Below, in pieces: positions 34,142-50,900 of a DNA stretch of 64,000 bases. The stretch spans positions 89 to 64,088 of the forward strand of contig CAZSWT010000012.1 of the NCBI GenBank assembly GCA_964611035.1, read 5' to 3'. The notes under the pieces are model-generated. The model was not told the origin of the DNA. It saw nothing but the letters and a program-made list of their open reading frames with translations, and made no database searches. Source of the DNA: an uncultured Desulfobacteraceae bacterium (GTDB lineage Bacteria > Desulfobacterota > DSM-4660 > Desulfatiglandales > B25-G16). Position 1 is the stretch's first letter; every line of letters begins with the position of its first letter. Both the position numbers and the translations under genes were made by a program.

Positions 34142-34627
34142 TTAATTAGTATCTTCAAACCTTACCCAGTTGTGGTGGCATATTGCTATGGCTAATGCAT
34201 CTGATGTATCTAAAGAGAATTGAATATCGAGTTTAAGGATGAGCTTAACCATGGATCTCACCTGTTCTTTTGTTGCCCTTCCATAGCCAACCACCGATTG
34301 TTTAATTTGCAAAGGGGTATACTCAAAAACCTTTAGGCCTCCCTGGATAGCTGCTATAAGAGCAGCTCCTCTTGCGTGGCCTATTTTTAAAGCGCTTTTA
34401 ACATTTTTTGCAAAAAAGATATCCTCAATAGACATTTCCTCTGGATGATAAGTCTGAATAACTTCAAGAAGGGATCTATAGATTTTATAGATTCTCTCGC
34501 TGAATGGCAAAGAATAAGGGAAAGAAATTTTGCCTGCCTCAACGTAAACCAATCTATTATCTTTCTTTTCTACTAAACCATAGCCTGTAGTTAACGAGCC
34601 GGGATCAACTCCAAGGACCAACATCAC
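34142..34627 (-). CDS. ruvC: Crossover junction endodeoxyribonuclease RuvC
   Basis: [13 protein letters not shown] at the N-terminus and [12 protein letters not shown] at the C-terminus. Confidence 0.95.
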
Positions 34628-35370
34628 CCGATGGCCTCCATAACCTCATCGGAGATGTCAAAATTGGCATATACGTGGTTTACATCTTCGTTATCTTCTA
34701 GATTTTCCATCAGGGTTAACATCTGTTGAGCATGTTTATCATCAATCTTAACAGTTGTATTGGGGATCATCGTTATCTCTGCGAATGTATAACTTATTCC
34801 TGCATTCTCAATAGCCGCTTTTACCTGTTCAAAGAAGGAAGGTTCAGTTATTACCTCAAGCTCTTTTTCATCTTCTTTGATATCATCAGCCCCAGCCTCT
34901 AAAGCCAATTCAAACAACATTTCTTCCTCTACCTCATCTTTTTGAAAAACTATAAGGCCCTTCTGAGAAAACATCCAGGCTACGCAACCTGACTCCCCTA
35001 AGTTGCCTCCTGATCTTTCAAATAGGTGCCTGACATCTGCAACGGCTCTGTTTTTGTTATCAGTCAATACCTCAATCAAAACAGCTACACCTCCTGGGCC
35101 ATATCCTTCATAGGTGACTTCTTCATAATTAGAGCCTTCTAATTCTCCGGTTCCTTTCTTAATAGCCCTTTCAATATTCTCCTTGGGCATATTTTCTGCC
35201 TTGGCTGTAGCTACAGCCACCCTTAACCTTGAGTTAGAATCTGAATCTTTTCCGCCCAGCCTTGTAGCAACAGTAATCTCCTTGATAAGTTTAGTAAAAA
35301 CCTTTCCCCTCTTAGCATCAACTGCTCCCTTTTTATGTTTTATGGAGGCCCATTTTGAATGTCCAGACAT
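34624..35370 (-). CDS. yebC: YebC/PmpR-family DNA-binding regulator
   Basis: [23 protein letters not shown], the canonical N-terminus. Confidence 0.95.
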
Positions 35371-35806
35371 TTATTACTCCCTTTTCTTGATGAAGTCGTT
35401 AAATCGTTGAGTTATTAAATTGTTTACCCCTCAACAACAGACTGCGGACAATAGCCAACTGATATCCTATGCCCAAATCTTTTTAGGTTTTTAACATAAT
35501 TAACTTTTTTTTGCCATATCAATTTAGGCATATCTTTTAAAGAGTTGAATTTTGCAAAATTTTTAAATCCTTGCCAAGTTTTTTATTTGACTTTATTATA
35601 TTTAATTGGATTAGATTAAGGCCTTGCTATTTTTTTAAGGATTTAGATTTCTGATGATCTTCAATAATTTTTTGCGGTGGCAACCTTGTTCCCCTTGGTG
35701 GACAAAATATATTGGAAGCGGCTGTATGGTGTAAGGCGGTTATTTATGGCCCCTTAATGGAGGATTTCTTAGAAGCCAAGGCATTATTAGTTCACCCAGA
35801 GGGATG

Positions 35807-35883
35807 TATATCCGAACATGGTTCGTATATACGCCTAAATTGGAAGGATATCAGAACCTATTTCGGATATAAACGAGTTATAT
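35807..35883 (+). other. Degenerate attC-like site at the head of the cassette array
   Basis: TATATCCGAA...TTCGGATATA stem followed by AACGA-GTTATAT. The 5' AAC box is missing. Confidence 0.35.
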
Positions 35884-35907
35884 GAAATAGCCCTAAGGTG
35901 AGATAAA

Positions 35908-36378
35908 ATGCTTCCAGATTTACTAAAGAGAAATTTGCGCGTTGTGATTTGTGGAACTGCTGTCGCTAATTATTCTGCAAAAGTGGGTTCATATTATGCG
36001 GGTGCCGGCAATAAATTTTGGCGAGTCCTTTTCGAGGTTGGATTAACACCCGTTATGCTGAACTCGAAAGATTATCAGAAACTGCTTAAATACGGGATCG
36101 GACTTACAGATCTGGCTAAAAATAAAGCTGGTCCCGATAGTAAGATTCCCTCTCATGCTTTCGATATTGAAAGATTCAAGAAAAAGATACAGGATTGTCG
36201 CCCGAAGGTAGTTTGTTTCAACGGCAAGAAAGCCGCTAAAATTTATCTGCGTAAAAAATATGTTGAATTTGGGTTACAGAAAGAACAGATCGAAAGTACC
36301 CATCTTTTTGTTGCACCGTCCACGTCAAGGGCGGCAAACCGCTGGTGGGATCAAAAATGGTGGCAAGAGATTTTATAA
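35908..36378 (+). CDS. mug: G/U mismatch-specific uracil-DNA glycosylase (Mug, UDG family 2)
   Basis: LRVVICGTAV...GNKFWRVLFEVGLTP parallels the E. coli Mug N-terminus as I recall it. Confidence 0.7.
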   Translation: MLPDLLKRNLRVVICGTAVANYSAKVGSYYAGAGNKFWRVLFEVGLTPVMLNSKDYQKLLKYGIGLTDLAKNKAGPDSKIPSHAFDIERFKKKIQDCRPKVVCFNGKKAAKIYLRKKYVEFGLQKEQIESTHLFVAPSTSRAANRWWDQKWWQEIL

Positions 36379-36398
36379 AGAAATGAATGGGCTACTTC

Positions 36399-36487
36399 AT
36401 ATAACACAGCATAAAAGGTTCGTGCCTTACGGCACTCACCTAAATTTTTGCTTCGCAAAAACTTCTTCGATGCTGGGAACGTTATAC
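36399..36487 (+). other. attC-like site 1
   Basis: ATATAAC-ACAGCAT...ATGCTGGGAAC-GTTATAC with two internal hairpins (GTGCC/GGCAC and TTTTTGC/GCAAAAA). Confidence 0.6.
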
Positions 36488-36516
36488 GACATAAAAATAA
36501 TTTACAGGACAAAAAG

Positions 36517-37128
36517 ATGGACGAACTAGAAGAAACGTATTCAAAACTTACCGATAATGAACTCTTGATTATGGTATACTTTGAGAGTTCAGACTATAAT
36601 GAAGAAGCGATTAAAATTGCTAAGTCAATTTTGGATAAGAGAGGATTAGGTCAACCATCAGATGAAATTTTGCAGCAGGCTAAAAACTATCATAGTCAGC
36701 TGAAGGAATCGCAAAAAGATCAATTTGCAGAAAAAATCCAATCCCGTGATGTGTTTAGATTTGGAAAATTAAAACAGGCATTTAAAGAAAAAAATTATTA
36801 TTTTATTGGTAAATTGTCGTTTTGGTTTGTAATCGGTTATGGTCTTTACTCTGGTTTAAGTATTGGCAGTGGCAGGGGAAAGTGGATTGAACTAATTCCC
36901 TTTGCAGAAACAATTAAATCAGAATGGCTATTTATCCTAGAAGTAGTTTTCAATATTGCCATCCTTGGAATATTTCCTATTATCTTTTTCATTATATATA
37001 GCCTGAAACTTTCGCAAGAACAGAGAAAAGAGCGGAGATTATCTTTGCTTATGCCGAAATATATCTTTTTCATTTATGGAATTTCGTTGTTTCTTTTTTT
37101 TGTTCTTGTTATTTTGCCAAGATTGTGA
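36517..37128 (+). CDS. Hypothetical membrane protein (cassette gene)
   Basis: I prefer the ATG at 36517, because the track start at 36448 lies inside the attC-like site. Soluble N-terminus plus 3-4 TM segments. Confidence 0.5.
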   Translation: MDELEETYSKLTDNELLIMVYFESSDYNEEAIKIAKSILDKRGLGQPSDEILQQAKNYHSQLKESQKDQFAEKIQSRDVFRFGKLKQAFKEKNYYFIGKLSFWFVIGYGLYSGLSIGSGRGKWIELIPFAETIKSEWLFILEVVFNIAILGIFPIIFFIIYSLKLSQEQRKERRLSLLMPKYIFFIYGISLFLFFVLVILPRL

Positions 37129-37138
37129 TTTTTACGTC

Positions 37139-37218
37139 GCCTAACAGCGGATAAAAGGGAAATCAAAGATTTCCCAAAATTGCCTTCGGCAATTTCTTTT
37201 ATCCGCAAAACGTTATAT
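37139..37218 (+). other. attC-like site 2
   Basis: GCCTAAC-AGCGGATAAAAG...CTTTTATCCGC-AAAAC-GTTATAT with internal hairpins GGGAAATC/GATTTCCC and AAATTGCC/GGCAATTT. Confidence 0.65.
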
Positions 37219-37251
37219 GAAATTGCTGTTAATTAAGGGAAAGGAGATATT

Positions 37252-37797
37252 ATGAACAAAAAATCTTTTTATCCATTGTTAGTAACTGGATTGGCCATCT
37301 TAGGAATGCTTACAGGGAGCTGTAGTAAAGCTCCAAATCCTAATCCAGCACCAAAGAAACCGAGTACTATGACAATTTCTGAAGGGAAAATTACCATAGA
37401 GATAAAGGCAGAAGGAGGGACTTTATATTACTTTGAGAAAAAAAGATGGGCTGCGAATGAATCCCCAGAGCTAAAAGAAAAAGATAAATTTAGATCTAAC
37501 CAAATTGAAAAATTTAAGGCAACCTATCGGGTAAATGCTGCCAATTTTAATGTAGAGATTGATAAAGAGGAAAAAACAACTGACTTGAAATGTAATATTT
37601 ATGTTAAATTTGATACCTGGTATGACTTTCACTGGTTTCTGAGGCCTCTTGGCCTTGATTTTATAGATAATCATTTTGAAAGAAGAGAAAAAGAGTTATC
37701 ATGGAAAGGGTGTTTGGATGGGGTTAAGACGACTATTCTGCTTAAATTTCCATTTAGGATTAATAATTGTCATGCACATGTCTGGCCAGCGAGATAA
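37252..37797 (+). CDS. Hypothetical lipoprotein (cassette gene)
   Basis: Signal peptide ending LTGSC. No family recognised. Confidence 0.5.
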   Translation: MNKKSFYPLLVTGLAILGMLTGSCSKAPNPNPAPKKPSTMTISEGKITIEIKAEGGTLYYFEKKRWAANESPELKEKDKFRSNQIEKFKATYRVNAANFNVEIDKEEKTTDLKCNIYVKFDTWYDFHWFLRPLGLDFIDNHFERREKELSWKGCLDGVKTTILLKFPFRINNCHAHVWPAR

Positions 37798-37799
37798 AA

Positions 37800-38030
37800 A
37801 TGATAGTAGTAAAATGTGCTCAATGCAAAGGGAAAATCTTCAAATATCAAAAGATTGGGAAAGGTCGATTATGGCACTGCTGGAAGGAGCGAATAATCGA
37901 GGATTATAGTATTAGAGATGGAAATAAAGTTAAATGCCAATGCGGTAATCTAATTGGTATTGTTGAAGGAAAATGGATTAAGATGAGGCAGCATTCTTTT
38001 ACCCACTCAGGGGCAATAACAAAAAAATAG
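37800..38030 (+). CDS. Small zinc-ribbon-like protein (76 aa)
   Basis: CAQC...CQC pairs. The ATG at 37800 lies just downstream of the lipoprotein stop. Confidence 0.4.
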   Translation: MIVVKCAQCKGKIFKYQKIGKGRLWHCWKERIIEDYSIRDGNKVKCQCGNLIGIVEGKWIKMRQHSFTHSGAITKK

Positions 38031-38039
38031 GAGGTAAAA

Positions 38040-38678
38040 ATGAAGGTCACTATTGTTTATGACAACACTGTTTACCAAAGAGGCCTCAAATCCGATTGGG
38101 GCTTTTCTTGCCTTGTAGAAGTAGAGAAGACGCCGAGAATTCTTTTTGACACGGGGACAAATGGTTCTATACTTCTTTCAAATATGCAAAAACTTAATAT
38201 CGATCCTACTTCTATCGATGAAGTTTTCATTTCCCACCCCCATTTTGATCACATTGGTGGACTTTCTGATTTCCTCCAGGTGAACAGGGAAGTCAAGATT
38301 TATATCCCCACTTCCTGTCCCAAGCCTTCTGGAGCAAAGGAGGTAGTTAGCATTGGACAGCCCCTTCAAATCCACGAAAATATCTCCTCTACTGGCGAGC
38401 TCGATGGTATAGAACAGAGCATGGCGGTCAAAATGGATAAGGGAATAGTAATGGTCGTAGGATGCTCCCACCCAAAAATGGAGCATATTCTACAGGCAGC
38501 TTCTCAATTTGGTAAAGTTTATGGTATTATAGGAGGATTGCATGGAAATAGGCCTGAATCCTTGAAGGACTTGGATTTGATTTGTGCGACCCATTGTACT
38601 CAATATAAGTCAGAGATAAAGTCTCTCTATCCGGAGAAATATATTGAAGGTGGAGCAGGAAGAGTAATTGAAATTTAA
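38040..38678 (+). CDS. MBL-fold metallo-hydrolase (COG1237-like)
   Basis: HPHFDHIGG metal motif. GGAGG upstream of the ATG. Confidence 0.8.
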   Translation: MKVTIVYDNTVYQRGLKSDWGFSCLVEVEKTPRILFDTGTNGSILLSNMQKLNIDPTSIDEVFISHPHFDHIGGLSDFLQVNREVKIYIPTSCPKPSGAKEVVSIGQPLQIHENISSTGELDGIEQSMAVKMDKGIVMVVGCSHPKMEHILQAASQFGKVYGIIGGLHGNRPESLKDLDLICATHCTQYKSEIKSLYPEKYIEGGAGRVIEI

Positions 38679-38679
38679 T

Positions 38680-39510
38680 ATGAATCTCAAAATCTTAATT
38701 TTAATCGGAATCTTAATTTTGACAGGGACAGGAATTTGTTTTTAAATTCAAGCTGAAAAAGCAACTTCGCCAGAAATTTCTATTGAATCAGAAAAAGAAG
38801 AAAAACCAGAAATAACCTTAATTTCGGTTTATGATAACTGCCAGGTAGATCCCGATCTGAAAACTGCATGGGGTTTTGGATGCGTGATAAAAACCCCTAA
38901 AGAACTAATATTGTTTGATACCGGGGGAAATTCAAAGATTTTGCTTTTCAATATGGAGAAGATGAATATCAATCCCAAATCAATTAATAAAGTAATTATT
39001 TCTCATATTCATGGAGATCGTGTGGGGGGATTAGAAGGATTTTTAGAGAAAAATAGTAATGTTACCGTCTTTATTCCAAGTTTCCTTCCTAATTCCTTTA
39101 GAGATATGATAACCAGTCAAGGAGCTGAATTTGTAGATGTTTCAGTCCCTAGAAAAATTTCTGATTTTATTTATACCACTGGAGAACTTTATGGACCTCC
39201 AAAAGAGCAATCTCTAATTATAGATTCAAAAAAGGGCTTAATAGTTATTACTGGGTGTGCTCATCCTGGAGTTGTAAATATTGTTAAAAAAGCCAAAGAA
39301 TTGATGAAAAAAGATAATGTATATCTTGTTATAGGGGGTTTTCATCATCCTCCTATAGCTGTAGTTAAAAAGTTTAGAGAACTTGGAGTAAAAAAAGTTG
39401 CACCATCTCATTGCACAGGTGATTTAGTTAGAGAGGCATTTAGAGAAGAATATAAAGAAGATTTTATAGAATACGGAGTAGGAAAAACAATTGAGATTAA
39501 AAATAATTAA
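38680..39510 (+). pseudogene. Secreted MBL-fold paralog interrupted by an in-frame TAA (38743-38745)
   Basis: ATG at 38680 gives the signal peptide MNLKILILIGILILTGTGICF, then TAA. The same frame continues IQAEK...ITLISVYDNCQVDPDLKTAWGFGCVIKTP, homologous to the N-terminus of 38040-38678 and upstream of the track's GTG at 38884. Confidence 0.6.
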
Positions 39511-39542
39511 AATGTGTTTAATATATCTTCGTTCGCACTATC

Positions 39543-39630
39543 GCCTAACAGCGGATATGAAGTTTCAGCCTTCGGCTTTCGCCCAAATACTCTCTACGCT
39601 CGGCCTTCTCATATCCGCGAACCGTTAATT
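39543..39630 (+). other. attC-like site 3
   Basis: GCCTAAC-AGCGGATATGAAG...CTTCTCATATCCGC-GAACC-GTTAATT. Same class as site 2. Confidence 0.65.
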
Positions 39631-39656
39631 GAAATGGAAGCAAAAGCAGGACAGCG

Positions 39657-40661
39657 ATGATGAACATAGATTTCATTATGACTAGGACGAAAATTTGGTG
39701 GGACGCTGCAAGGTGGTTGGCACTCCCACAATCAGCAATGGCCTGCGCCGTTGGCGGGCTCATTGCCTTCTACCATGGCAAGTTTGATCCGCTACTGTTT
39801 CTGGTCACATTCGCTGGCCTGGTGGCAGTTCATCTCGGCACGAATCTGCTGGATGACTACGCTGACTTAAAAATTGGTGGTTTTTCCATTCGAAATAAGG
39901 TTCAGCAGGCAGGCGATACTGTGCGCACTGAAAAGGCACCTTATGTCATCAACGGCACCATCAAGCTCGATCACGTACTCTACGTTTCATTAGGGCTTTT
40001 CGCACTCGGCCTGCTAGCTGGCGCTTATCTCACGGCAATATCTGGCTGGCCAGTTGCAGCTATAGCTGCCGCTGGAGCGTTCTTTTGCTTTTTCTACTCT
40101 ATGCCACCCGTAAAACTATGCTACCGCGGCATGGGAGAAGTGGCCGTAGCCTTCTCATTCGCGATGACATGTGTGGGCACTTACTACGCCGTGGCACAAA
40201 GCTTTAGTTGGGAGCCGGTTTTCATCTCGGTGCCTATCGGCATCATGGTTGGCCTGATCCTTTACGTCCATTCCATAATGGATTTTAAGCCCGACCTTGC
40301 GGTCAAAAAAAGAACCCTGGTTATGGTCCTTGGTAATCAGCAAAAGGCCATACGGTTACTGCCGCTGGCATTTGTAATAGCTTATGGTTCCATTATTGGC
40401 GGCATAGCGATGGATATCTTGCCGCTCACTACCCTTTTGACACTCCTAAGCATTCCTATGGCAATTAAGCTTGCGCAGCTTATGCGCCGGATAGGACAGG
40501 GTGATTATGAGGTCAAGCGGACTTGGTGGATGGGGCCCATGGAGAGCGGTTTAGTGGAAATAGGACAGTGGTTTATGGTTCGATGGTATCTGGCACGCAA
40601 CCTGATGGTAGCCACTACCCTGCTAATATTTGCTGCGTATATTATAGCGTTAGTCTTTTAG
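39657..40661 (+). CDS. UbiA-family (MenA-like) aromatic prenyltransferase
   Basis: 8-9 TM segments and the Asp-rich NLLDDYADLK motif. Confidence 0.8.
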   Translation: MMNIDFIMTRTKIWWDAARWLALPQSAMACAVGGLIAFYHGKFDPLLFLVTFAGLVAVHLGTNLLDDYADLKIGGFSIRNKVQQAGDTVRTEKAPYVINGTIKLDHVLYVSLGLFALGLLAGAYLTAISGWPVAAIAAAGAFFCFFYSMPPVKLCYRGMGEVAVAFSFAMTCVGTYYAVAQSFSWEPVFISVPIGIMVGLILYVHSIMDFKPDLAVKKRTLVMVLGNQQKAIRLLPLAFVIAYGSIIGGIAMDILPLTTLLTLLSIPMAIKLAQLMRRIGQGDYEVKRTWWMGPMESGLVEIGQWFMVRWYLARNLMVATTLLIFAAYIIALVF

Positions 40662-40673
40662 TGAGGAGGCCAC

Positions 40674-41588
40674 ATGTTTGAGTTAGCGCACTATGCAGCA
40701 TGGTATGCCAAGTGTCGTTTATTGGGTAAAAGGTTACCAATCCAGTCGGTTGTTTTCATCACCACACGCTGCAACTTGAAATGCAAGCACTGTATATTTG
40801 CTAAGGGCGTGGCTGAAGGCACACTTAAGGCAGAGGATTTTACCTTTTCACATGTTATGGACTTACTGAGGCAATGCTATGACGCCGGCTCACGGATGGT
40901 CACCTTTGAGGGTGGTGAGCCACTTCTCTGGCAGGATGAAGGCCTTTACTTAGAGGATCTGGTCAAAAAAGCCAATAAAATAGGCTTCCTGTCCACTAGC
41001 TACAGTACCAATGGCACTTTCCCCATTCCCAACAGCAGCGCTGACCGTATCTTTGTGAGCCTGGATGGAACGAAAGAGTTCCATGATGAAATACGGGGGG
41101 CAGGAACGTTTGACCAGGTCATGCAGAATATAGTGGAGTCTTCCTACCCTCACATCAGCGTCAATATGGTTGTGAATAATATCAATTGGAAATGTGTCCC
41201 AGATTTGATACACCTTGTAGCTGAAACGAGGAATATCAAAAGCATTTCGATCAATTTTCACACCCCTCACGTGGGGGTGGAGGATTTTTTTCTGCCCTGG
41301 GATAAACGTAAACTGGTGCTTGACCAGGTGATCAAGCTTAAGAAAGAGGGCTATACCATTGCTAACTCGCTAGAAGGTCTGAAACGCATGTACGATAACA
41401 GGTTTACCAAACGCTGTTGGATAACTAACTTTGTCTTACCTGATGGAAAACTCCACCCCCAATGTCCGGGTGCTGAAGAAGGAATCTGTGATAGGTGTGG
41501 CTATGGCATGGGTGCCGAGATGTCGGCTCTATATGATCTTGCGCCGTCTACTATTATAGAGGGGCTAAAACTGTTCTCAAAGCATTGA
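40674..41588 (+). CDS. Radical SAM enzyme, function unknown
   Basis: TTRCNLKCKHC (CxxxCxxC), a C-terminal Cys cluster CPGAEEGICDRCGYG, and GGAGG upstream of the ATG. Confidence 0.8.
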   Translation: MFELAHYAAWYAKCRLLGKRLPIQSVVFITTRCNLKCKHCIFAKGVAEGTLKAEDFTFSHVMDLLRQCYDAGSRMVTFEGGEPLLWQDEGLYLEDLVKKANKIGFLSTSYSTNGTFPIPNSSADRIFVSLDGTKEFHDEIRGAGTFDQVMQNIVESSYPHISVNMVVNNINWKCVPDLIHLVAETRNIKSISINFHTPHVGVEDFFLPWDKRKLVLDQVIKLKKEGYTIANSLEGLKRMYDNRFTKRCWITNFVLPDGKLHPQCPGAEEGICDRCGYGMGAEMSALYDLAPSTIIEGLKLFSKH

Positions 41589-41628
41589 ATAATTAACCTT
41601 TTGAAGCATGAACTCTATCTTGCACTTC

Positions 41629-41709
41629 ACTTAACACGGTGTAAAAGACTCCGCTTCGCTCCGTTCAGATTCGGCTTCGCCGAACTTCTTTTACACCCAA
41701 AACGCTATC
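41629..41709 (+). other. attC-like site 4
   Basis: ACTTAAC-AC-GGTGTAAAAGA...TCTTTTACACC-CAAAAC-GCTATCT. Perfect 11-bp stem. The 3' box has GCT instead of GTT. Confidence 0.55.
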
Positions 41710-41756
41710 TGCTATGCTTATAAATATGAAAGTATGAAAATTATGTGTTATCGTGA

Positions 41757-41882
41757 AAAGGAGGGAATATTCTGGGAGTAATCGATAAGATACGCAAAAA
41801 GGTCATCGACAAGCAGTATGAATGCACAATTCCACACTTCTTTGAAGAGATGGTGCAGTGTTTATGCCCTATAATAATTTAA
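41757..41882 (+). pseudogene. Truncated DUF4258-like toxin remnant
   Basis: The frame reads ILGVIDKIRKKVIDKQYECTIPHFFEEMVQ, then stops early. There is no ATG start. It sits in the usual toxin position upstream of a YgiT-type antitoxin. Confidence 0.35.
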
Positions 41883-41894
41883 GAGGTGATAAAA

Positions 41895-42155
41895 ATGTAT
41901 AATTATGGAAAATGCGAAATCTGTAATACTCCACTCGAGGAGAAGATTATCCAGCAGGACTTTTGGATTAAGGACAAATTGGTAGTGATTGATAAAGTTC
42001 CAGCTGGGGTATGTCCTCAATGTGGCGAAAAAATTGTCAATGCAGAGGTAGGAGAACATATCGCTGAGCTACTTAAGGACAGAACCCGTATAAATAAAGC
42101 ACCTACCATATCTGTTCCACTTATAAAGTATGAATTAGAAACCAGGGCAGTTTGA
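41895..42155 (+). CDS. YgiT-type zinc-finger protein (MqsA-like antitoxin N-domain family)
   Basis: CEICNTPL...CPQCGEK zinc ribbon. AAGAGG upstream of the ATG at 41895. Confidence 0.7.
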   Translation: MYNYGKCEICNTPLEEKIIQQDFWIKDKLVVIDKVPAGVCPQCGEKIVNAEVGEHIAELLKDRTRINKAPTISVPLIKYELETRAV

Positions 42156-42174
42156 GACTGTTTGGACGCACAGC

Positions 42175-42272
42175 AGATAACACATCATATACGCTACCCT
42201 CCGGTCCTTCGCTTGGCATTAGGGGCATTACTCCCTTTGTTTGGAAGGTCGGATATGCTGGGTACGTTATTT
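42175..42272 (+). other. attC-like site 5
   Basis: AGATAAC-ACATCATAT...GATATGCTGGGTAC-GTTATTT. Same terminal class as site 1. Confidence 0.6.
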
Positions 42273-42390
42273 GCGTTGGCCCCTATATATCAAATTAATT
42301 ATTGAAAAGGGGAAAGAGGAGATATTTAGCATGCAGGAAGGGCTGTTTGCTGAACGCTGATCGCTTACGATATTCTAAGGTAAAGCAAAC

Positions 42391-43383
42391 ATGAGGAAAG
42401 TCTCGAGATTAATTCAACAAGCCAGAGAGGTACTACAGATTGAGGCCCAAGGGGTCCTCGATTTAATTGAAAGGATAGGGCCTGAGTTTGAACAAGCTGT
42501 AGAGATGATTCTGAATAGCAAAGGAAGGGTAATTTTTACAGGAATTGGTAAATCAGGTTTAGTTGGCAGAAAGATCATGGCGACTCTCAACAGTACTGGT
42601 ACCCCCTCACTCTTTCTGCATCCAGTGGAGGCAGTTCATGGTGATCTGGGTATGGTTACAGCTGATGATATTGTTATAGCTATCTCTAACAGCGGCTATA
42701 CAAAGGAGTTAATAAATATTTTACCAATCCTGAAAAATCTTGGCATAAAGGTTATTGCCTTTTGTGGAGATCCGGAATCGCCGTTAGCAAAAGAAAGCCA
42801 TCTATTTATAGATGTAGGGGTGGAAAGAGAGGCATGTCCTTTGGGTCTCGCACCCACAACCAGCACAACTGCTGCCCTGGCCATGGGTGATGCGTTAGCT
42901 GTTGTTCTTATAAACCGCAAGCAGTTCAATAGGAAGGACTTTAAAAGGTTTCACCCAGGCGGTAGTTTGGGAGACAGGCTTTCAATCAAGATTAAAGAGG
43001 TTATGTTTACAGGAGACCGGATACCTTTAGTTGCTATAGACCAAACAGTGAGGGAGACTATCTTTGAAATCGACAAAAAAAAGTTAGGTGCATCTCTGGT
43101 TGCAGATGATGACCTTATCTTACTTGGTATTGTCACAGATGGTGATATCAGAAGAGCCCTTTTAAATTGGAAAGATATAATGGGATTAAAGGTGGAGAAG
43201 ATAATGTCAAGATCTCCAAAGATGATCGATGAAGAAAAAAAGGTATCTGAAGCAGTAACCTTAATGGAACATAATGCTATTAGTGTGTTACCCGTTGTGG
43301 ACAAATTAAAAAGAGTTAAAGGTATTGTCCATTTACATGAGCTCTTAGGGGGAAAGGAATTCAGATTAAATGGAAGCCAATAA
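42391..43383 (+). CDS. kpsF: KpsF/GutQ-family arabinose-5-phosphate isomerase (SIS + 2 CBS)
   Basis: GIGKSGLVGRKIMATLNSTGTPS SIS motif and a C-terminal CBS pair. Confidence 0.9.
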   Translation: MRKVSRLIQQAREVLQIEAQGVLDLIERIGPEFEQAVEMILNSKGRVIFTGIGKSGLVGRKIMATLNSTGTPSLFLHPVEAVHGDLGMVTADDIVIAISNSGYTKELINILPILKNLGIKVIAFCGDPESPLAKESHLFIDVGVEREACPLGLAPTTSTTAALAMGDALAVVLINRKQFNRKDFKRFHPGGSLGDRLSIKIKEVMFTGDRIPLVAIDQTVRETIFEIDKKKLGASLVADDDLILLGIVTDGDIRRALLNWKDIMGLKVEKIMSRSPKMIDEEKKVSEAVTLMEHNAISVLPVVDKLKRVKGIVHLHELLGGKEFRLNGSQ

Positions 43384-44320
43384 AACCCCTAAAGGATTGA
43401 TCGTTGATCTCATTACCCCCCTTGATGATAAGGGAGATATTGACAATGACGGTTTGGTTTCTCTTTTAAAAAAGGTTCTGCCTTATGCCGATGCAATACT
43501 CCTTGCCAGTCCCAAGATGGGTGAGGGTAGTGGTCTTAGCTTAAATCTGAAAACAGACTTACTACAAAATGCTACTACTTTTATTCAGGGAAGAATACCG
43601 ATCTTTTTTTGGATAAGTGAAGATTCAGCAGAAAATACTGAAAAGACGCTTGCTCTTCTTGAAGATCTTCTAAAATCATATAGTTATAAGGGAGAAGTTT
43701 TCTGGCTTGACTCACCACTTTATTATCATAGCAACAGGGGTCTATATGACCATTACCAGGATCTTACCTTGAATACAAAATATCCTTTTGTGCTTTATAA
43801 CGATCCAGGACTGATTAACCTTTTAGAAAGGCCTTTAAAGAGGTGTAATATACGAACAAGCATCCTTAAAAATTTGGCTGAAATAGGAAAAATCAAGGCA
43901 TTAATCTTTCGTGGCTCACTTACCAGGGTTAATAACTACCAGAAGGCCGTTAACCGTCGGCCGGATTTTAGGGTCTATGATGGAGATGAGGATAGGTTTT
44001 TAGAGTACCCAAGCATGAGTGGGGTACTTTCAATAGGGGCAAATATAGCACCAAGGATCTGGAGTAATGTAACCAGGGCCTCGCTGGGTCTGTTAGAGGA
44101 AGACAGGGAAAAAAGAGATTATCTACATCAAATCTGGGAAATGGGGAGATTGCTCAAAGATCTCAGGCAAATTTACAACCCAAACCCTGTATGGACAATT
44201 AAAAAGTCTCTGGTAGACCTCAATATTATAGGCTTTCAAGCCTGTACATCTGTAACACAGCCTTTTGTTGAAGAAGAAAACCATCTATCTGAGTTTATCT
44301 CAACTCATGCTATAGAGTAA
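43370..44320 (+). CDS. Dihydrodipicolinate synthase/N-acetylneuraminate lyase-family protein (divergent)
   Basis: Overall DapA-like TIM-barrel pattern, with a candidate Schiff-base Lys in GKIKAL. The assignment is weak. Confidence 0.45.
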   Translation: MEANKTPKGLIVDLITPLDDKGDIDNDGLVSLLKKVLPYADAILLASPKMGEGSGLSLNLKTDLLQNATTFIQGRIPIFFWISEDSAENTEKTLALLEDLLKSYSYKGEVFWLDSPLYYHSNRGLYDHYQDLTLNTKYPFVLYNDPGLINLLERPLKRCNIRTSILKNLAEIGKIKALIFRGSLTRVNNYQKAVNRRPDFRVYDGDEDRFLEYPSMSGVLSIGANIAPRIWSNVTRASLGLLEEDREKRDYLHQIWEMGRLLKDLRQIYNPNPVWTIKKSLVDLNIIGFQACTSVTQPFVEEENHLSEFISTHAIE

Positions 44321-44373
44321 TAATTCTTAATCCATCTCATTCCATGACTATGAGTGCTCCGGTCAACAATTTT

Positions 44374-44660
44374 GGATCTTCTCCAAATTAGTTGGTCAAG
44401 ATTAAGGCTTAAATCTTATTTGATTAATGATTTCAGTAGGTATAGCTTTTAAAAGCAACTCCGATAATGGGTACCTACCAGGCTCATCATAGCAGTTGCC
44501 TATAAAAGTAATTTCCTGTTAATACTTAATTTCTGGAGTAACATTATCACCTAACAATATGGCCTAATTAATCAAAAAGGTTAATGGTGAAATTACATTT
44601 AATTTCAATATGTTGTATTTTGGTAAATCATTTTTCTACCAACTAATTTGGAGAAGAACC
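44374..44660 (-). mobile_element. 287-bp MITE, copy 2 (reverse orientation)
   Basis: Reverse complement of 24577-24863, apparently identical by eye. Flanked by direct ACAATTTT (44366-44373 and 44661-44668). Confidence 0.85.
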
Positions 44661-44882
44661 ACAATTTTAAACTTTATCCTGATTGGTATTTTTACATTCA
44701 TTCATCTTTATTGTTCCAAATCCTTAACATGTTTGCAGTTGTTATTACTTGCCTTAATATTCGTAGCTTGCGTCGTAGCCGCAGCATGGGCTTGGTATGA
44801 AACGGCCGAAAATTATTATATCCATCTTACAGCAACTTATGATGAAGTAACTAAAAAAGACCATCCTAAAGAGGAGCAATAA
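44610..44882 (+). CDS. Small 2-TM hypothetical protein; the start codon and first 17 codons come from the MITE
   Basis: ORF track. The hydrophobic segments lie outside the MITE. The start is questionable. Confidence 0.3.
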   Translation: MLYFGKSFFYQLIWRRTTILNFILIGIFTFIHLYCSKSLTCLQLLLLALIFVACVVAAAWAWYETAENYYIHLTATYDEVTKKDHPKEEQ

Positions 44883-44885
44883 TTT

Positions 44886-44959
44886 GGCTAACCAATCATT
44901 TGAGTGGGACTGGTTTTATGCTGGCCGCTCCAAACCAGCCCCTAAATTCATCGTTAGGT
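44886..44959 (+). other. attC-like site 6
   Basis: GGCTAAC...CATTT(G)AG-GGGACTGGTTT...AAACCAGCCCC-CTAAAT...-GTTAGGT. It has an extrahelical G and a canonical GTTRRRY box. Confidence 0.6.
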
Positions 44960-45007
44960 GCCTACTGTCAGAACGGGTATATGTGTGCCCTGTCTCTGCT
45001 AACTTGA

Positions 45008-45131
45008 TAGTATAGGAAATCCCATTTTTTAGACAGGATAGACGGGATGTTCAGGATATAAAGAAAATAAGAAAATCTTGTTAATCGTGGTAATCCTGTC
45101 AAAAAAGTTCCGCCGAAGGCGGCTAAGTTCA
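45008..45131 (+). repeat. Structured repeat unit D (R1 family), solo copy
   Basis: Appears identical by eye to unit A (7128-7251). Confidence 0.85.
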
Positions 45132-45158
45132 AGATTAATCAATCCGGAAGCATAGAAA

Positions 45159-45455
45159 ATGGCAAAAGGATCAAAAACTCCAGCGTCTAGAAAGTGGTCA
45201 GCAAAAGTTACCCATGAGAGCTATGCACTGGATCTGGAAGAAGGTGTCTTTACCTGGAGAGATCCAAAAAGGATTGCACTGTCACTTAAGAAGTCGGCAG
45301 ATACCAGCAAGCACCGCAAGGCTCCGCCGTTTCGTTCTGCCATGTCCATGCTGGTATTCTATATTAATCGAGCAGGTAAGAATTTGGACAAGGACCAGAA
45401 GCGTATTTTGGAAAAGGCAAAGGATGAGTTGCGCAAATTATATTGTAAGGTCTGA
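45159..45455 (+). CDS. DUF3175-family protein
   Basis: 98 aa, basic, with the pattern THESYALDLEEGVFTW...SAMSMLVFYINRAGKNL as I remember for DUF3175. Confidence 0.55.
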   Translation: MAKGSKTPASRKWSAKVTHESYALDLEEGVFTWRDPKRIALSLKKSADTSKHRKAPPFRSAMSMLVFYINRAGKNLDKDQKRILEKAKDELRKLYCKV

Positions 45456-45683
45456 TAATTCTGTGCGGCTTGAATGGACCGATCATCCGAATCCATCGGC
45501 TAACATTCCGGCGAAGACGGGCAAGGTCGTGGAACTTTGAGCTTTTAACAAATTTTGGGTTTATTTGGCATTAACCAAGGCCTCTTTACCCTGCTCGCTG
45601 GTGATGGTGGACGTTCAAGTAAGCCTTCGGCAGGTGTTTCATGAATTTGACAATGTAGTCAGCCCTTGACGATAGACATTTTC

Positions 45684-45831
45684 GCCTAACAAATCGTAAC
45701 TTCTCAATAAGTTGGGGCAGCAGTTTAAAAAATGCGGCATATCATTTAAAGGAGCATGGCGGTTTTTAAAATGCTCTATCCCGCATTAAAGTAAGTGGTT
45801 TTTCAAGGTTCAGTACCTCGCAGTGTTGGCG
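45684..45831 (+). other. Long attC-like / nested-stem structure
   Basis: GCCTAAC...GTTGGCG ends enclose the nested inverted repeats AATGCGG/CCGCATT and GAGCAT/ATGCTC. Confidence 0.3.
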
Positions 45832-45970
45832 GCAAGTGACCTCTGTCGAACCCCATAGAAAAACTCTATGCTTTTATATTTGATTTTATTATAAGCGTGG
45901 TTTATAATGTACATTAACATAGATTGACGTACATGATTTTTATATTTTATATTTAAAAATGGAGTGAATT

Positions 45971-46198
45971 ATGATCACAGTTTCAGCAACAAAACTAAGA
46001 AATAATCTGTTCAATTATCTTGATAAAGTTGCAGAAGGAGAGACGGTTGTGATTCAGCGTAATAATCACGAAGTTGCACGCTTGCTTCCTTTACAAAAAC
46101 CTAACTGGCGCAATAATATGAGCATAAGGCCTAAAATACTCGTATCTTCGGATGAATTAATTAAACCCATCGAAGATATTTGGGAGGATTACGTTTGA
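45971..46198 (+). CDS. Phd/YefM-family antitoxin
   Basis: MITVSATKLRNNLFNYLDKVAEGETVVIQRNN is typical of Phd/YefM. Confidence 0.85.
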   Translation: MITVSATKLRNNLFNYLDKVAEGETVVIQRNNHEVARLLPLQKPNWRNNMSIRPKILVSSDELIKPIEDIWEDYV

Positions 46199-46593
46199 AG
46201 AAAGATTCTTATTTATTCGATACACATGCCCTTATTTTTTGGAGCAATAAAGAATCGGTATCAGATGATTTTATTATTTTCTTTGATAAGCAGGAACAAA
46301 AAGGCAATATTTTTGTGTCCTCCATTTCATTTTGGGAAATCGCTTTACTGGTTAAAAAGGGTAAAATTGAAATGAGAGATATTCATGCCTGGAAAAATGA
46401 AATACTCACCAATACCAATATTGAATTGATCGATCCAACAGCATCGGAAATGATTGATTCAACTCTCTTACCTGATCACCATAAAGATCCTTTTGATCGC
46501 TTATTGATTGCCCAGGCGTATAGTCATCAATTGTTGTTGGTGACAAAAGATATTTATATTCAAAAATACTCCATACAAACTTTTTGGATATAG
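46180..46593 (+). CDS. vapC: PIN-domain toxin VapC
   Basis: YLFDTHALIFW...SFWEIALL...DPFDRLLIAQA. Overlaps the antitoxin 3' end. Confidence 0.85.
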   Translation: MGGLRLKKDSYLFDTHALIFWSNKESVSDDFIIFFDKQEQKGNIFVSSISFWEIALLVKKGKIEMRDIHAWKNEILTNTNIELIDPTASEMIDSTLLPDHHKDPFDRLLIAQAYSHQLLLVTKDIYIQKYSIQTFWI

Positions 46594-46738
46594 AAATTTG
46601 AGATAATCTCTTTCAGTGGAGCGCAAAAAGCCGCGCCCGCTGAAGAGTATGTTAATCCAATAAACTATTATATGCTTACGTAATCTTTGCCTAGTTTGAA
46701 TATATATTAATAGGTGACTTTCAAAGAAGGAGGGCGCC

Positions 46739-47740
46739 ATGGACTTTGAATTTCATTATTATATCACAGGGATAATAGCCCGACGGGCAGGGTTCAGTGA
46801 GGATGATGCTAAGATCATTGCCTATGCCTCACAATTTGTGGACGACAATGATGTGATCCTTAATGTCACAGATCGGGAAAGCGGACAGGCTTACTCCAAC
46901 TATATCAGCCAGACAATGGACATCCTGAAACCCAAAAAGGCATTGATGCGCATCTATCCCATCTTTCACTTTGTGCCTGGATATCCCATGGCAGAGTCAG
47001 CAAGACGCGCTGACGGCAAGATGCACATCTTGAATACAACACCGGACAATGATATTGCCAATGACATGCTCTCAAGCGCATTTAAAGCCTCTACAGACAT
47101 CCGACCTTACCGTATAGGCATTGCAACCCATGCATATGTGGATACCTGGGCACACCAGAACTTTGTGGGTTTCAACGACAGCTTCAATGGAAGTATCCTG
47201 AACCCGATTCCCAATATTGGACACGCAGAAGCGAAGCACCATCCAGATTGGGTCAGCCATCGATGGGAGGATGACCGGTTAGTGGAAAGCGATATTGACA
47301 ATAATTTACGCTTTATTTCAGCATCGAAGCGATTGTTTGAAAACTACGTTGACTATCTCGGATCAGATCTCTCATGGCCTGATCTTGAAAAAGATCTGCT
47401 TTTGACCATGGGCCGCTCCAGGCGTGGCAACCAATATTATGGGCGGGAGGAGCGCTTGGAAGGCTATTCTCAGATGGCAAAGTGGCTGCCTCTTTACAAC
47501 GAAGATGATTGGTTTAATAAGGCCATAAAACAGGAGGTCCATGGACTTGAAGATTCTCAGGACGGGATTTTCGCCAAATTCACAATCTTTAAAGATCAAT
47601 ACTGGTGGAAAGAAGATGTGGGAAAGGAAGACACCCATTGGTTCAAATTCCAGGAAGCGGTTAAAGAGCATCAGGCGTTAGCCTTGGGCCCAGTAAACAA
47701 GAGGTGCAAGACTATGGGCATCGACATTCATTTGCTTTAG
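46739..47740 (+). CDS. Conserved hypothetical protein, His-rich (possible metal-dependent hydrolase)
   Basis: FHYYITGIIARRAGF...HAYVDTWAHQNF...GHAEAKHHPDW. No confident family. Confidence 0.4.
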   Translation: MDFEFHYYITGIIARRAGFSEDDAKIIAYASQFVDDNDVILNVTDRESGQAYSNYISQTMDILKPKKALMRIYPIFHFVPGYPMAESARRADGKMHILNTTPDNDIANDMLSSAFKASTDIRPYRIGIATHAYVDTWAHQNFVGFNDSFNGSILNPIPNIGHAEAKHHPDWVSHRWEDDRLVESDIDNNLRFISASKRLFENYVDYLGSDLSWPDLEKDLLLTMGRSRRGNQYYGREERLEGYSQMAKWLPLYNEDDWFNKAIKQEVHGLEDSQDGIFAKFTIFKDQYWWKEDVGKEDTHWFKFQEAVKEHQALALGPVNKRCKTMGIDIHLL

Positions 47741-47967
47741 CAAGCTATATTTATCTTTTTTAATATACGTTCTGTACGAATGTTCCATTCTTCATGGCTC
47801 CAATCTTCCTTTTTTATTTAACATGAGGGCCCAGATACCATGTTATGCGATACACCCAAGTAGGAAAAGCGGCTTCTTTTCACTTTTCCCCTCGGGAGAA
47901 TGAGCCAAGATAAGCTTCTTTTCAGCTTTGAGGTTAGAAAAATGCGAGAGCTGAAGGAGCTTTCAGA

Positions 47968-50900
47968 TTAAGTCTCTTTGATCGAATCGTTTCTTCCAAT
48001 CCCTTTAATAGAGCCGTATAAGGTGGGAACAAAGAAGGTGGTGAACAGGGCAGATACCAGCATTCCTCCAATCACCACACGGGCCAGGGGGGCATTGATC
48101 TCTGAGCCTTCCCCAAATCCAAGGGCCATGGGAACGAGTGCGAGAGACGTGGTGAGTGTGGTCATCATAATTGGACGAAGACGTCTTTTTGCCCCAATAA
48201 GGATTGCTTCCCTTAAGGGATGTTCCTTTTTTCTCAGTTTGTTGATGTAGTCAATCATGACGATTCCATTGTTAACCACGATTCCGATAAGGAGGACCCC
48301 TCCGATAAAGACAGGGATCGTAACATTCATGCGGAGAACCAATATCGCGATAATAACCCCGATAGAGGCTAAAGGTACAGTAAACATGATCACAAACGGC
48401 TCGGTGAGTGACTCAAACTGAGAGGCCATTACCATATAAACCAGGACAATTGCCAGTATGATTGCAAACAGGAGCCCTCCAAATGCCTCCCTCTGCTTCT
48501 CATATTCGCTTGCGAAATCAAGGCGAAAGTTACGTGGTAACTTCAGGTCACTGAGTCTCTCTCTGATCTCCTCAACAATGTGACCAAGATCCCGGCCCTT
48601 GATCCCTGCCATTACCGTGATCAGCCTCTCCTGATCTCTTCGCTCAATCTTTGTCGGCCCTTTCCCCTCGGTAATGGTGGCAAACCCCTTCAATGGAATG
48701 TCCTTGCCTCCTGGCCCATTAATGGATATGTTAAGGACATCCCGGAGCCTCCCACGGTCCTCCTCCCGTAATCTTACAAGGATATCAAACTCATCACCGC
48801 CTTCCCTATAGCGGGAGGCCACTGTACCCTCGATATTGGTATTAATTACCTGAAGGATTCGTGAGATCGGAAGCCCCATTGTAGCTGCCTTTGATCTGTC
48901 AATGGCTATCTTGAGCTCAGGTCGGTTGTCTTCAAGGCTTATCCTTGGATAGATAACCCCTTTCACGTGCTTTATCCTGTGTATAATCTCATTGGCAATG
49001 GTCTTTCCCTCCTTAAGATCATATCCCTTAAGGTCTATCTCAAGCCTTTCCTCGCTTCCCCCTCCAAGTATTCCTGTATACATCGATCTTCCCTCGTAAA
49101 TACGAACCTTTGCATCAGGGATGTTAGCAAACTTCGGTCTCAAGCTTGCTACGATCTCTTTTGTGGAATGCTTCCTGTCCTTTTTGTCTATCAGGTGTGC
49201 CCGAAAAAAGGCCATGTGAGACCCTCCCCCACGGCGCCAGTGGGTACCTGAACGGGCAAACATCCCTTCCATCTCCGGAACATCGCTAAGAATTATCTTC
49301 TCCGCTTCACTCGTGATACTGTCGGTGATGTCGAGCCGTGTTCCCACTGGCATCTCGATGACCCCGTTGACAATCCCCTCATCGATCTCTGGAAGGAGTT
49401 CCGTTCCAACACCCTTAATGTGAAGGGTCCAGAATGCCAGAAACAGAAGGAGGACTGATCCACCCAAGACCGTTTTCCGGTGCGTCAGAGACCACCCCAA
49501 CCCCTTCAGATATCCTTCATAGAAGCGAGCTCGAACAGCTCCTGTATCTTTCCTTTCAACCCTTAGAAACCGGGATGAGAACATAGGAATCAAGCTCAGG
49601 GCCACTACTAAAGCAGCTATTAGGGAAAAGGTGACTGTGAGGGCCATCTGCTTAAATATCACCCCCTCTATCCCCTTGAGAAAGAGCAGCGGTAGAAATA
49701 CGCAGATTGTGGTTAGAGTTGAGGCCGTGATGGCCATCCCTACCTCTTGGCTCCCCTCAAGAGCCCCTTCTATCGCACCTCTTCCCTCCTCTCGGTGGCG
49801 AAAGATGTTTTCGAGGACCACAATAGAGCTATCCAGGATCATCCCGATCCCTAGGGCCAAACCTCCCAGGGACATCATGTTGATTGTGAGCCCCATCCGA
49901 TCGAGAAGGAAGAAGGTAGCCCAGATAGCGATAGGTATGGATGCCGAAATGATGAGGGTGCTTCGAATGTTTCTGAGGAAGGCAAAGAGGACTAATATCG
50001 CCAGGATCCCCCCTATGAAGGCGACCTGTTTGACTTGCTGTATGGATTTCCTGATAAAGTCTGCTGTATCAAGAACAACAGAAAAGGTAACTCCTTCAGG
50101 AAGGTCGCTCTTGAGCCTGGGAAGAATTGTTAAAACCCGGTTAGAGACCTGGACGGTGTTGCTTCCCGACCTTTTCCTTACAGCCACCATCACACCACGC
50201 TCACCGTTAATCCTCAGGTGTCTGCGGAGCTCCTTAAACCCGTCCCTCACATCAGCCACGTGCTTCAAGTAGATAGGCCTACCCTGTCTGGTGGCAACAA
50301 TAATATTCTCTATATCTTTCAGGCTTGAGAATTCTCCTAAGGGACGAATCAACCACTCTCTTCTCCCTGTCTCGAGACGCCCTCCTGGAAGTGAAAGGCT
50401 TTCTCCCTTAAGGATTGTGACCAAGGCATCGATGGATAGACCGATGGAGCGAAGTTTCCCTCTGTTGACTTCCACCTGGATTTCTCTCTCTAAGCCTCCC
50501 CATATATCAACGGCCGCCACACCTTCTATTTGTTCGATATCGTACTTGATCCGGTCGTCGGCCAAATCCCTCAGCCTGGAAGGATGGAGTGGGCCTCGCA
50601 GAGAAATGAAAAGGATGGGACGATTTGAAGGGTCGTATTTATAGAGATATGGGTCCTCTGCATCTTCCGGCAGAAAACGGCGCACCCGATCGAGCTGCTC
50701 TCGGATATCGTTGGCCGCCTCCGCCAGGTCCGTTCCCCAGTTAAAATCGACTGTTACAGTGGAGGCATCCTCAGCGGAAGTGGAGCGAATCTCCTTGACA
50801 TTTTCTATGGTGCTGACCCTTTTTTCGATAGTCTCGGTGATGAGCCTCTCGACTTCCTGGGGCCCGGCTCCCTCATATTCAGTATAAATGGTAATGGCTG

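Follow-up and report, generated by a model that had tools for sequence, protein, structure and literature searches.

Among the systems that shuffle small gene modules with tyrosine recombinases, the duplex sites of Xer/dif and pdif are 28 bp long, with two arms and a spacer of 6 to 8 bp. The attC sites of integron cassettes are defined in the field by two spacers and by extrahelical bases (Ghaly 2021; Cury 2016, PMC4889954), and the I2, or additional, domain of the integron integrase IntI is regarded as a requirement both for the capture of cassettes and for single-strand recombination (Messier & Roy 2001 and MacDonald 2006, as cited in PMC7790495 and PMC9668308). How did integrons arise from Xer-like enzymes? 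Escudero 2020 remarked on "the lack of intermediates." Recombinases without I2 that lie near attC sites were dismissed as not IntI on the basis of the complete genomes of that time (Cury 2016, PMC4889954), and the "Cand" recombinases were grouped as Xer-like with no mention of arrays (Smyshlyaev 2021). A literature search that reached few subscription journals returned no description of I2-less integron-like integrases or of arrays like the one considered here. That array lies between the core genes yebC and kpsF in a 64,000-nucleotide (nt) stretch of DNA (the window) from an uncultured Desulfobacteraceae bacterium (GenBank CAZSWT010000012.1, positions 89 to 64,088) and consists of five gene cassettes, each ending in a palindromic site (s1 to s5).

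An initial annotation, made from the letters alone, had described a cluster of attC-like sites without an integrase (CALIN) downstream of yebC-ruvCAB. An integrase-less, promoter-poor cassette array it is, with a cluster of five sites in 64 kb that encode no tyrosine recombinase, but the classical attC identity and the extent claimed past 42272 are not supported. The term CALIN fits the layout, while membership of the classical integron family is not shown. We read the array as an orphaned, decaying fragment of a non-canonical integron-like system, its sites served by an IntI/Xer-like recombinase that lacks I2, and give this reading a probability of roughly 0.72.

One family of folded sites

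The initial annotation had quoted nine stretches as sites with RYYYAAC-like and GTTRRRY-like boxes. All nine are present as written and the AAC and GTT cores are there, but both strict boxes occur together in none of them. A scan for the exact pattern formed by the shared ends of s2 and s3 matched at least 120 metagenome contigs, and 87 related loci (80 chosen by site pattern, 7 by recombinase homology) serve for comparison below. Two models were built without window sequence, R1 from 48 non-redundant metagenome copies (alignment A1) and the broader R3 from 123 array sites. Their matches, with E-values from a shortened calibration, and the z-scores of DNA folding are as follows.

s1, 36399-36487: R1 E=1e-7, R3 E=4e-12; fold z=-5.0
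s2, 37139-37218: R1 E=3e-24, R3 E=1e-19; fold z=-7.5
s3, 39543-39630: R1 E=1e-13, R3 E=3e-12; fold z=-1.4
s4, 41629-41710: R1 E=7e-8, R3 E=3e-9; core mutated, GCTA for GTTA
s5, 42175-42272: R3 E=3e-3; BLAST homologues inside the arrays of L118 and L114

As had been claimed, these five sites are real and co-oriented, their bottom strand being the minus strand of the window. They are members of one conserved family of structured sites, 74-98 nt long. Nothing else in the 64 kb matched R1 or R3 at E<0.01, save the opposite strand of s2, and a search of 1.29 Mb of control sequence (80 yebC neighbourhoods and 8 class 1 integron loci) with R3 gave no match at E<=1. The subfamily of s1 is also present in five related loci (L122, L128, L117, L169, and L115), and other arrays carry up to 7-16 co-oriented sites, each right after at least one open reading frame (ORF). 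Simpler searches of the window gave less: a crude perfect-stem scan matched s2 and s3 alone, and a strict regular expression for RYYYAAC...GTTRRRY, tried and set aside, returned one unrelated match.

What does a folded site look like? The bottom strands of s1, s2, and s3 fold alike into a TAAC(G)/(T)GTTA box, a 4-nt bulge, and a perfect stem of 10-11 bp. Throughout the family, TAAC...GTTA is invariant, although no window site fits both strict 7-mers and s4 has GCTA. The R box is likewise invariant (TAACG paired with TGTTA), and the consensus adds a T-rich 4-nt bulge on the 5' side alone and a continuous 11-bp stem with a branched tip and without extrahelical bases. In 150 aligned copies, pairing is kept in 97% of cells, versus 83% in shuffled alignments and about 45% with slid partners, and double-sided changes number 330 cells versus 76 in shuffles. 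Covariation is seen in 11 of 11 stem pairs and in none of the R box. Folding of the bottom strands, a check proposed with the initial annotation, thus bears out a shared fold in s1-s3, though with no extrahelical bases; in the family at large, 114 of 126 sites fold more stably on the bottom strand than on the top one, by a mean of -2.06 kcal/mol (p=5e-20). Two conserved G-T pairs on this strand become A-C mismatches in the mRNA-sense strand, which argues against a role as RNA or terminator.

The edges of the sites carry a further signal. Complementarity between the three bases that follow GTTA in one site and the three that precede TAAC in its successor averages 2.14 of 3, as against 1.13 within the same site and 1.12 for random pairs; none of 2000 random sets reaches 2.14, and complementarity is perfect in 40 of 85 neighbouring pairs. 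Within the window, the core GTTATAT of an attI-like element (s0, described below) complements the R'' box of s1 (ATATAAC) at 7/7 positions, and the s3/s4 and s4/s5 boundaries each match at 6/7. Such complementarity is the signature that would be expected of circularisable cassettes exchanged within an invariant core.

Hairpins right after stop codons might also be REP (repetitive extragenic palindromic)- or MITE (miniature inverted-repeat transposable element)-like repeats, or transcription terminators, with no role in cassette exchange, and a terminator scan did catch some of the inner hairpins. We consider this very improbable. Repeats of the REP type had been expected in both orientations irrespective of gene ends, whereas the copies in the 64 kb all lie in one 6-kb block in one orientation, with none in close relatives. 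No T tract follows the main stem, terminator-like matches are no commoner than in shuffled sequence, and the G-T pairs are on the antisense strand. Neither the boundary complementarity nor the sharing of cassettes between arrays (see below) would be expected of repeats or terminators.

The 48 pattern-selected copies give an 80-nt consensus with a mean column identity of 69%, which is unusually conserved for an attC-like element. At the three-way junction, this conservation takes in the motif GAAGTT[hairpin]AATTTGGG of the bottom strand.

Comparison with canonical attC sites

Are these attC sites in the usual sense? A stand-in for the attC model of IntegronFinder, termed R2, was built from 13 class 1 attC sites. 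The class 1 integrons were fetched with an IntI1 sequence that is 100% identical to the annotated protein. The 13 sites share the layout R''(7), 5 nt, L''(3), extrahelical base, L''(5-6)...L', 5-6 nt, R'(7), and R2 recovers every attC in 8 class 1 plasmid loci (E 1e-5 to 4e-12), including cassettes outside its training set. At s1-s6 (s6 being a further proposed site, below) R2 finds no match, its best window match (E=1.4) lying elsewhere, and R3 in turn finds none of the class 1 attCs. The attC covariance check suggested at the outset thus came out negative with this surrogate. In s1-s5 and 123 relatives the spacers are 1 nt (spacer'') and 5 nt (spacer'), compared with 5 nt and 5-6 nt in the class 1 sites. 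Because of these spacers and the lack of extrahelical bases, the family sites are not canonical attC by the field's definition.

The likeness is nevertheless considerable. As in classical arrays, cassettes are co-oriented, groups of ORFs are followed by imperfect palindromes with AAC...GTT cores, the bottom strand is favoured in folding, and hybrid R' boxes stand at cassette boundaries; the absence of a nearby integrase and the cargo of toxin-antitoxin modules and genes of unknown function are equally familiar. The differences lie in the site itself. Between R'' and L'' there is 1 nt where attC has about 5, extrahelical bases are lacking, a 4-nt bulge is found on the R' side alone, and the three-way tip is conserved in sequence. 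An ordinary CALIN, with classical attCs served by a canonical IntI encoded elsewhere and short recombinases near related arrays by coincidence, would account for the cores, the hairpin form, the position at 3' ORF ends, and the toxin-antitoxin cargo, and it is common for CALINs to have no intI close by (Cury 2016, PMC4889954). This explanation is nonetheless an unlikely one, given the spacer, the missing extrahelical bases, and the mutual blindness of the two models, in that R2 finds all control attCs and none of s1-s6 while R3 finds no class 1 attC.

Three more sites proposed farther right, at 44886-44959, 45684-45831, and 46602-46657 (s6-s8), are unsupported: they have no model match and no BLAST homologue in the 87 loci, and their fold z-scores are only -1.8 to -2.8. 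The first of them has canonical-looking 5/5 spacers, yet it does not match R2. A palindrome at 17491-17520, GCCTAACAGTT...GTTAGAA, inside an ORF (17343-17810), is a weak R1/R2 match (E 1-6) and probably a chance one.

Recombinases and an attI-like element beside related arrays

If no classical integrase is at work, what is? The window offers no candidate. As the initial annotation had stated for the neighbourhood of the array, there is no integrase, and this extends to tyrosine recombinases in the whole window; a search of 35371-35806 for a remnant of intI or another recombinase gave chance-level matches only (e.g., RWQPCSPWWT versus RWHPDKKYWS, E=0.17 in a 540-bp database). Among the 80 pattern-chosen loci, nine carry recombinase genes or fragments (L101, L106, L110, L114, L159, L160, L164, L166, and L177). 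Among the seven chosen by recombinase homology, six have sites on the expected side, and the seventh is cut off but has an attI-like element. Canonical IntI is present in 0 of the 87 related loci, versus 16 with I2-less enzymes at stereotyped positions, which also counts against the coincidence that an ordinary CALIN would require.

The recombinases align well with IntI1, including the C-terminal SPLD motif, and lack about 42 residues, roughly 187-234 of IntI1, which belong to the IntI-specific domain. Among NCBIfam models they match NF040815 best ("site-specific tyrosine recombinase/integron integrase"; 238-248 bits versus a cutoff of 220), and TIGR02249 (integron integrase) matches in two pieces, under its cutoff. 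The closest solved structure is VchIntIA (2A3V, 2e-44), followed by XerA (about 1e-40) and XerD (1e-26). The related loci resemble sedentary chromosomal integrons such as that of Vibrio (VchIntIA and its repeats, VCR) in their long arrays of similar sites, in having VchIntIA as the closest solved homologue, and in the recombinase gene at one end of the array, which may point away from it or, like the Treponema-type "inverted" arrangement, be co-oriented with it. They differ in that their enzymes lack the I2 domain, which defines IntI and binds extrahelical bases, and the window has no recombinase at all.

Two clades can be told apart. Clade 1 enzymes, of about 278 amino acids, are typical of Patescibacteria and chromosomal, with a divergent array that starts about 170 bp upstream; their neighbours are housekeeping genes (RF-1/PrmC, SmpB/IF3, and FtsK/RecA). 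Clade 2 enzymes, of 350-400 amino acids, have an N-terminal extension and are co-oriented with the array, so that the gene is followed by an attI-like element and then by cassettes. Their best 120 homologues are 59-74% identical and come, by source name, from Nitrospirota, Thermodesulfobacteriota, Acidobacteriota, WOR-3, and Micrarchaeota. Some clade 2 copies are internally deleted or fragmentary (L159 4664-4984, beside an attI-like element; L160 550-879; L110 8087-8206), and loss of the recombinase from arrays is therefore recurrent.

The attI-like element has a counterpart in the window, at the left end of the array.

35795..35888, plus strand: attI-like element (s0), about 71-78% identical to elements in 11 other loci

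The initial annotation had listed 35807-35883 as a weak site of the same kind as the rest. It is indeed a conserved element, but one different from the family sites, with no 5' TAAC box and no significant R3 match (E=8.7). Its layout is a palindrome (35807-35831), a linker, a second palindrome (35847-35871), AACGA, and the core GTTATAT (35877-35883); the tandem palindromes, TATATCCGAAC..GTTCGTATATA and GATATCAGAAC..TTCGGATATA, are dif-like. Homologues are found in L108, L168, L117, L166, L164, L100, L114, L159, L102, L224, and L225, and the copy in L223 matches that of L114 alone, not the window element. In 7 of 7 loci with a co-oriented recombinase (L114, L159, L164, L166, L223, L224, and L225), the element is directly 3' of the recombinase gene and before the cassettes. 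We accordingly use the reading of a putative attI-like site for 35807-35883.

Do the arrays actually change? L220 (1-9921), whose array has at least 16 sites, and L221 (2238-2806) share an identical recombinase and flank and differ by 9.1 kb, or about 15 cassettes. The segment is bounded by directly repeated sites, and the sequences diverge right after ...GCGCGTT. We rejected this deletion as proof of site-specific recombination, since homologous recombination between the 195-nt repeats, which are 98-100% identical, explains it equally well. Might homologous recombination between similar repeats alone, with no site-specific recombinase, have shuffled all the arrays? The L220/L221 pair fits, but the idea as a whole has little to recommend it. 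An invariant R box beside covarying stems is hard to explain in this way, as are the precise 3-nt complementarity across neighbouring sites, the occurrence of the same cassettes in arrays with differing sites, and the stereotyped place of the recombinase gene and the attI-like site at array ends.

The Xer world provides another comparison. With Xer/dif and the integrative mobile elements exploiting Xer (IMEX), examples of which are the CTX-phi single-stranded attP, XerS/difSL, XerH, and XerA, the related arrays share an Xer-sized recombinase (NF040815, XerA-type), tandem stacking, a hairpin that may mimic a duplex core, and, in Patescibacteria, a gene amid housekeeping genes beside its presumed site. 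Here, however, every unit is a gene cassette (0.5-2.4 kb) that carries a site of its own, as in integrons, and one recombinase clade is itself horizontally mobile, with a dedicated attI-like site. The pdif modules of Acinetobacter plasmids are likewise small groups of genes that have tyrosine-recombinase sites on either side and are shuffled from one replicon to another; they have XerC/XerD duplexes in alternating orientation, as opposed to hairpins of 74-98 nt in direct orientation. It could therefore be proposed that the arrays are minimal IMEX-like stacks on a housekeeping single-Xer/dif system, with the hairpin mimicking the dif duplex as in CTX-phi, and that the window holds a transferred piece. 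The place of the Patescibacteria enzyme and the dif-like palindromes of the attI-like element are in keeping with this, as are the status of a "Cand" subgroup as Xer substitutes (Smyshlyaev 2021) and the proposal that single-stranded IMEXs stood at the origin of integrons (Escudero 2020). We think it improbable, a shade more so than the ordinary CALIN. Unlike a housekeeping Xer, the 350-400-amino-acid clade is spread across phyla at the identities given above, travels with an attI-like site, and has decayed copies inside arrays. The mechanism overlaps with that of the reading we prefer, and only the status of the enzyme differs.

How the sites might be recombined

In the preferred reading, an integron-like system without I2, recombination would act on the folded single-stranded form of the sites, as it does with attC, and strands would be exchanged within CGTTA, the invariant core. 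Instead of a classical IntI, the enzyme at work would be a tyrosine recombinase of IntI/Xer-like type without the additional domain. The folded bottom strand may present two duplexes, that of the R box and that of the stem, with the one-sided bulge between them, and a recombinase dimer might bind both; the partner would be the attI-like duplex or a second hairpin, as in integrons. A site without extrahelical bases would match an enzyme without the domain that binds them in VchIntIA, to judge from the literature on 2A3V as excerpted in PMC7790495. The Patescibacteria enzyme may serve as the chromosomal Xer as well, in which case the cassettes would be minimal IMEX-like elements, in line with how Escudero 2020 pictures the origin of integrons. 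The window copy would be mobile solely if a recombinase acted in trans.

Several points weigh against this reading. (i) The Patescibacteria recombinase may be a chromosomal Xer, as its housekeeping neighbours suggest, and not a dedicated integrase. (ii) A canonical IntI is possible elsewhere in this genome or in those of the related loci. (iii) The L220/L221 difference is explicable by homologous recombination. (iv) The score of s5 is borderline (22.5 bits), and the E-values in general are rough. (v) The related loci were fetched with a pattern derived from s2 and s3, which biases them toward that subfamily. (vi) The canonical test rests on R2, with only its 13 class 1 cassette sites, and not on IntegronFinder's own model. 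(vii) Cleavage position, strand choice, and cognate enzyme are all things that we infer from sequence comparison.

What would it mean? The arrays show every comparative hallmark of attC-type recombination beside I2-less IntI-like enzymes. If the reading is right, the origin of integrons would become directly testable with natural proteins and sites. It would also reveal, in Patescibacteria and several further phyla, a store of cassettes that present tools may miss or list as CALINs, and it would supply IntegronFinder with an additional covariance model to adopt. More tentatively, at somewhat under even odds in our estimation, the window may hold a strayed piece of a separate branch of integron-like systems, one that is widespread and as yet undescribed. 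In this branch I2 would never have been acquired, or would have been lost, in the closest relatives of IntI, and the sites would lack extrahelical bases; one clade would be chromosomal in Patescibacteria and the other horizontal among Nitrospirota, Thermodesulfobacteriota, Acidobacteriota, WOR-3, and DPANN archaea. Were this so, cassettes could be recombined as single strands without I2, and these systems would be the natural "intermediates" between Xer/IMEX recombination and integrons. For the genome at hand, the element is a decaying passenger of modest consequence.

Cassettes and their decay

The cassettes, all on the plus strand, are the following.

35878..36481: cassette 1, uracil-DNA glycosylase superfamily gene (35908-36378; Pfam UDG) and s1
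36482..37212: cassette 2, 203-amino-acid protein (36517-37128; no Pfam match, initially labelled a membrane protein) and s2
37213..39624: cassette 3, 181-amino-acid protein (37252-37797), 75-amino-acid ORF (37803-38030), two metallo-beta-lactamase (MBL)-fold genes, and s3
38040-38678 and 38680-39510: the two MBL-fold genes of cassette 3 (Pfam)
39625..41703: cassette 4, UbiA prenyltransferase (39657-40661) and radical SAM (40674-41588) genes (Pfam) and s4; GC content 0.48 versus 0.40 in core DNA
41704..42266: cassette 5, toxin remnant (41772-41882), MqsA-like antitoxin (41895-42155), and s5

Two of these cassettes, those with the MBL and MqsA genes, are also present in other arrays, where their neighbours differ: the MBL1-MBL2 stretch (38030-39557) has 74-79% DNA identity to cassettes in L161, L130, and L146, and cassette 5 has 82% to a cassette lying between sites in L124 and L163. 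The 181-amino-acid protein of cassette 3, initially labelled a lipoprotein, has no Pfam match. Cassette 3 is probably a fusion of formerly separate cassettes. Scans for promoters and terminators returned counts equal to those of shuffled sequence, and no Pc promoter is claimed.

Is the array still in working order? It is best read as orphaned and decaying, because the core of s4 is mutated, the toxin gene is deleted, and a nonsense codon interrupts the second MBL gene. By comparison with L124, the start codon of the putative toxin remnant has changed from TTG to CTG and about 175 bp have been lost internally, which makes the antitoxin an orphan; L124 and L163 retain the putative toxin ORF upstream at its full length. 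In the second MBL gene, an in-frame TAA (38743-38745) stands right after the signal peptide where the intact L130 copy has an alanine codon; either the gene is a pseudogene, or translation re-initiates and the product is not exported. The two MBL proteins each have a precomputed Pfam match to the anti-Pycsar protein Apyc1, which hmmscan did not reproduce.

An insertion between yebC and kpsF

The surroundings of the array comprise the following parts.

34624..35370, minus strand: yebC (Pfam TACO1/YebC), core gene and left flank; 92-94% DNA identity and synteny with L226 and L227
35381..35630: stretch retained from the ancestral spacer between yebC and kpsF; alignment to the L226/L227 spacers covers 35561-35619/35630 only
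35631..35794: left junction DNA, strain specific; no homology to relatives or array loci and no convincing recombinase remnant
42267..42370, plus strand: truncated start of a sixth cassette (ribosome-binding site and 9-codon ORF) and right junction; homology to relatives is back at 42371-42376
42391-43383 and 43370-44320, plus strand: kpsF and a dihydrodipicolinate synthase (DHDPS)-like gene, core genes and not cassettes
44354..47991, plus strand: second strain-specific region (90-amino-acid ORF, DUF3175, Phd/PIN toxin-antitoxin genes, DUF6765), in place of the opp operon of L226-L228; the proposed sites s6-s8 fall here

The window corresponds to the Joint Genome Institute (JGI) metagenome contig Ga0315541_1000195, and the same arrangement is found in 15 contigs from related samples; these same-strain contigs all carry the same array, with no polymorphism among them. 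To the left of the array lie ruvB, ruvA, ruvC, and yebC, all on the minus strand. In three relatives (L226-L228) the gene order is trkH-trkA-ruvBAC-yebC, a spacer of 554-893 bp, kpsF, the DHDPS-like gene, oppABCDF, and acrB. In BLASTN against L226, 26674-35380 and 42376-44353 of the window align at 92-94% identity, and in the relatives of this identity, where yebC and kpsF are adjacent, there are no R3 sites. Since the two genes are adjacent and site-free there, the array is an insertion, and kpsF and the DHDPS-like gene are not its cargo. More precisely, it is a strain-specific insertion of about 6.75 kb, at about 35631-42370, in the yebC-kpsF spacer of a Desulfobacterales genome. The presence/absence comparison proposed with the initial annotation thus found the array missing from close relatives, and the statement that a site follows every gene group is true up to 42272 but not beyond, where core genes begin. 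Both junctions of the array are away from its sites.

YebC is 70-73% identical to proteins of metagenome-assembled genomes of Desulfobacteraceae and Desulfobacterales. The kpsF product, a SIS-CBS protein, has homologues graded from 99% down to 78% identity, with named sources in Desulfobacteraceae, Deltaproteobacteria, or Thermodesulfobacteriota, and because of this graded series kpsF is taken as a core gene. A scan of reference genomes based on YebC was tried for the limits of the array and abandoned, as the nearest genomes share no synteny past yebC-ruvCAB; the comparison based on kpsF succeeded. The GC content is 41% for the window and 0.33-0.48 for the cassettes, versus 0.40 for core DNA. 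A promoter-like TTGCCA-17-TATTAT stands in the spacer at 35571-35599, in a scan with no more matches than shuffled sequence. Rfam and tRNA scans of the window found no match.

A few observations concern the rest of the window. After DUF6765 comes acrB, in convergent orientation. The acrB block (47992-50950 and beyond) has just 76-80% DNA identity to L226/L227, compared with 92-94% for the flanking core, which may reflect a tract of recombination or the replacement of an efflux operon. An IS110-family transposase gene is found at 7345-8334 (DEDD_Tnp_IS110 and Transposase_20), and an ORF of 384 amino acids at 25250-26404 has a weak Apea-like HEPN match (E=6e-4, under the Pfam cutoff).

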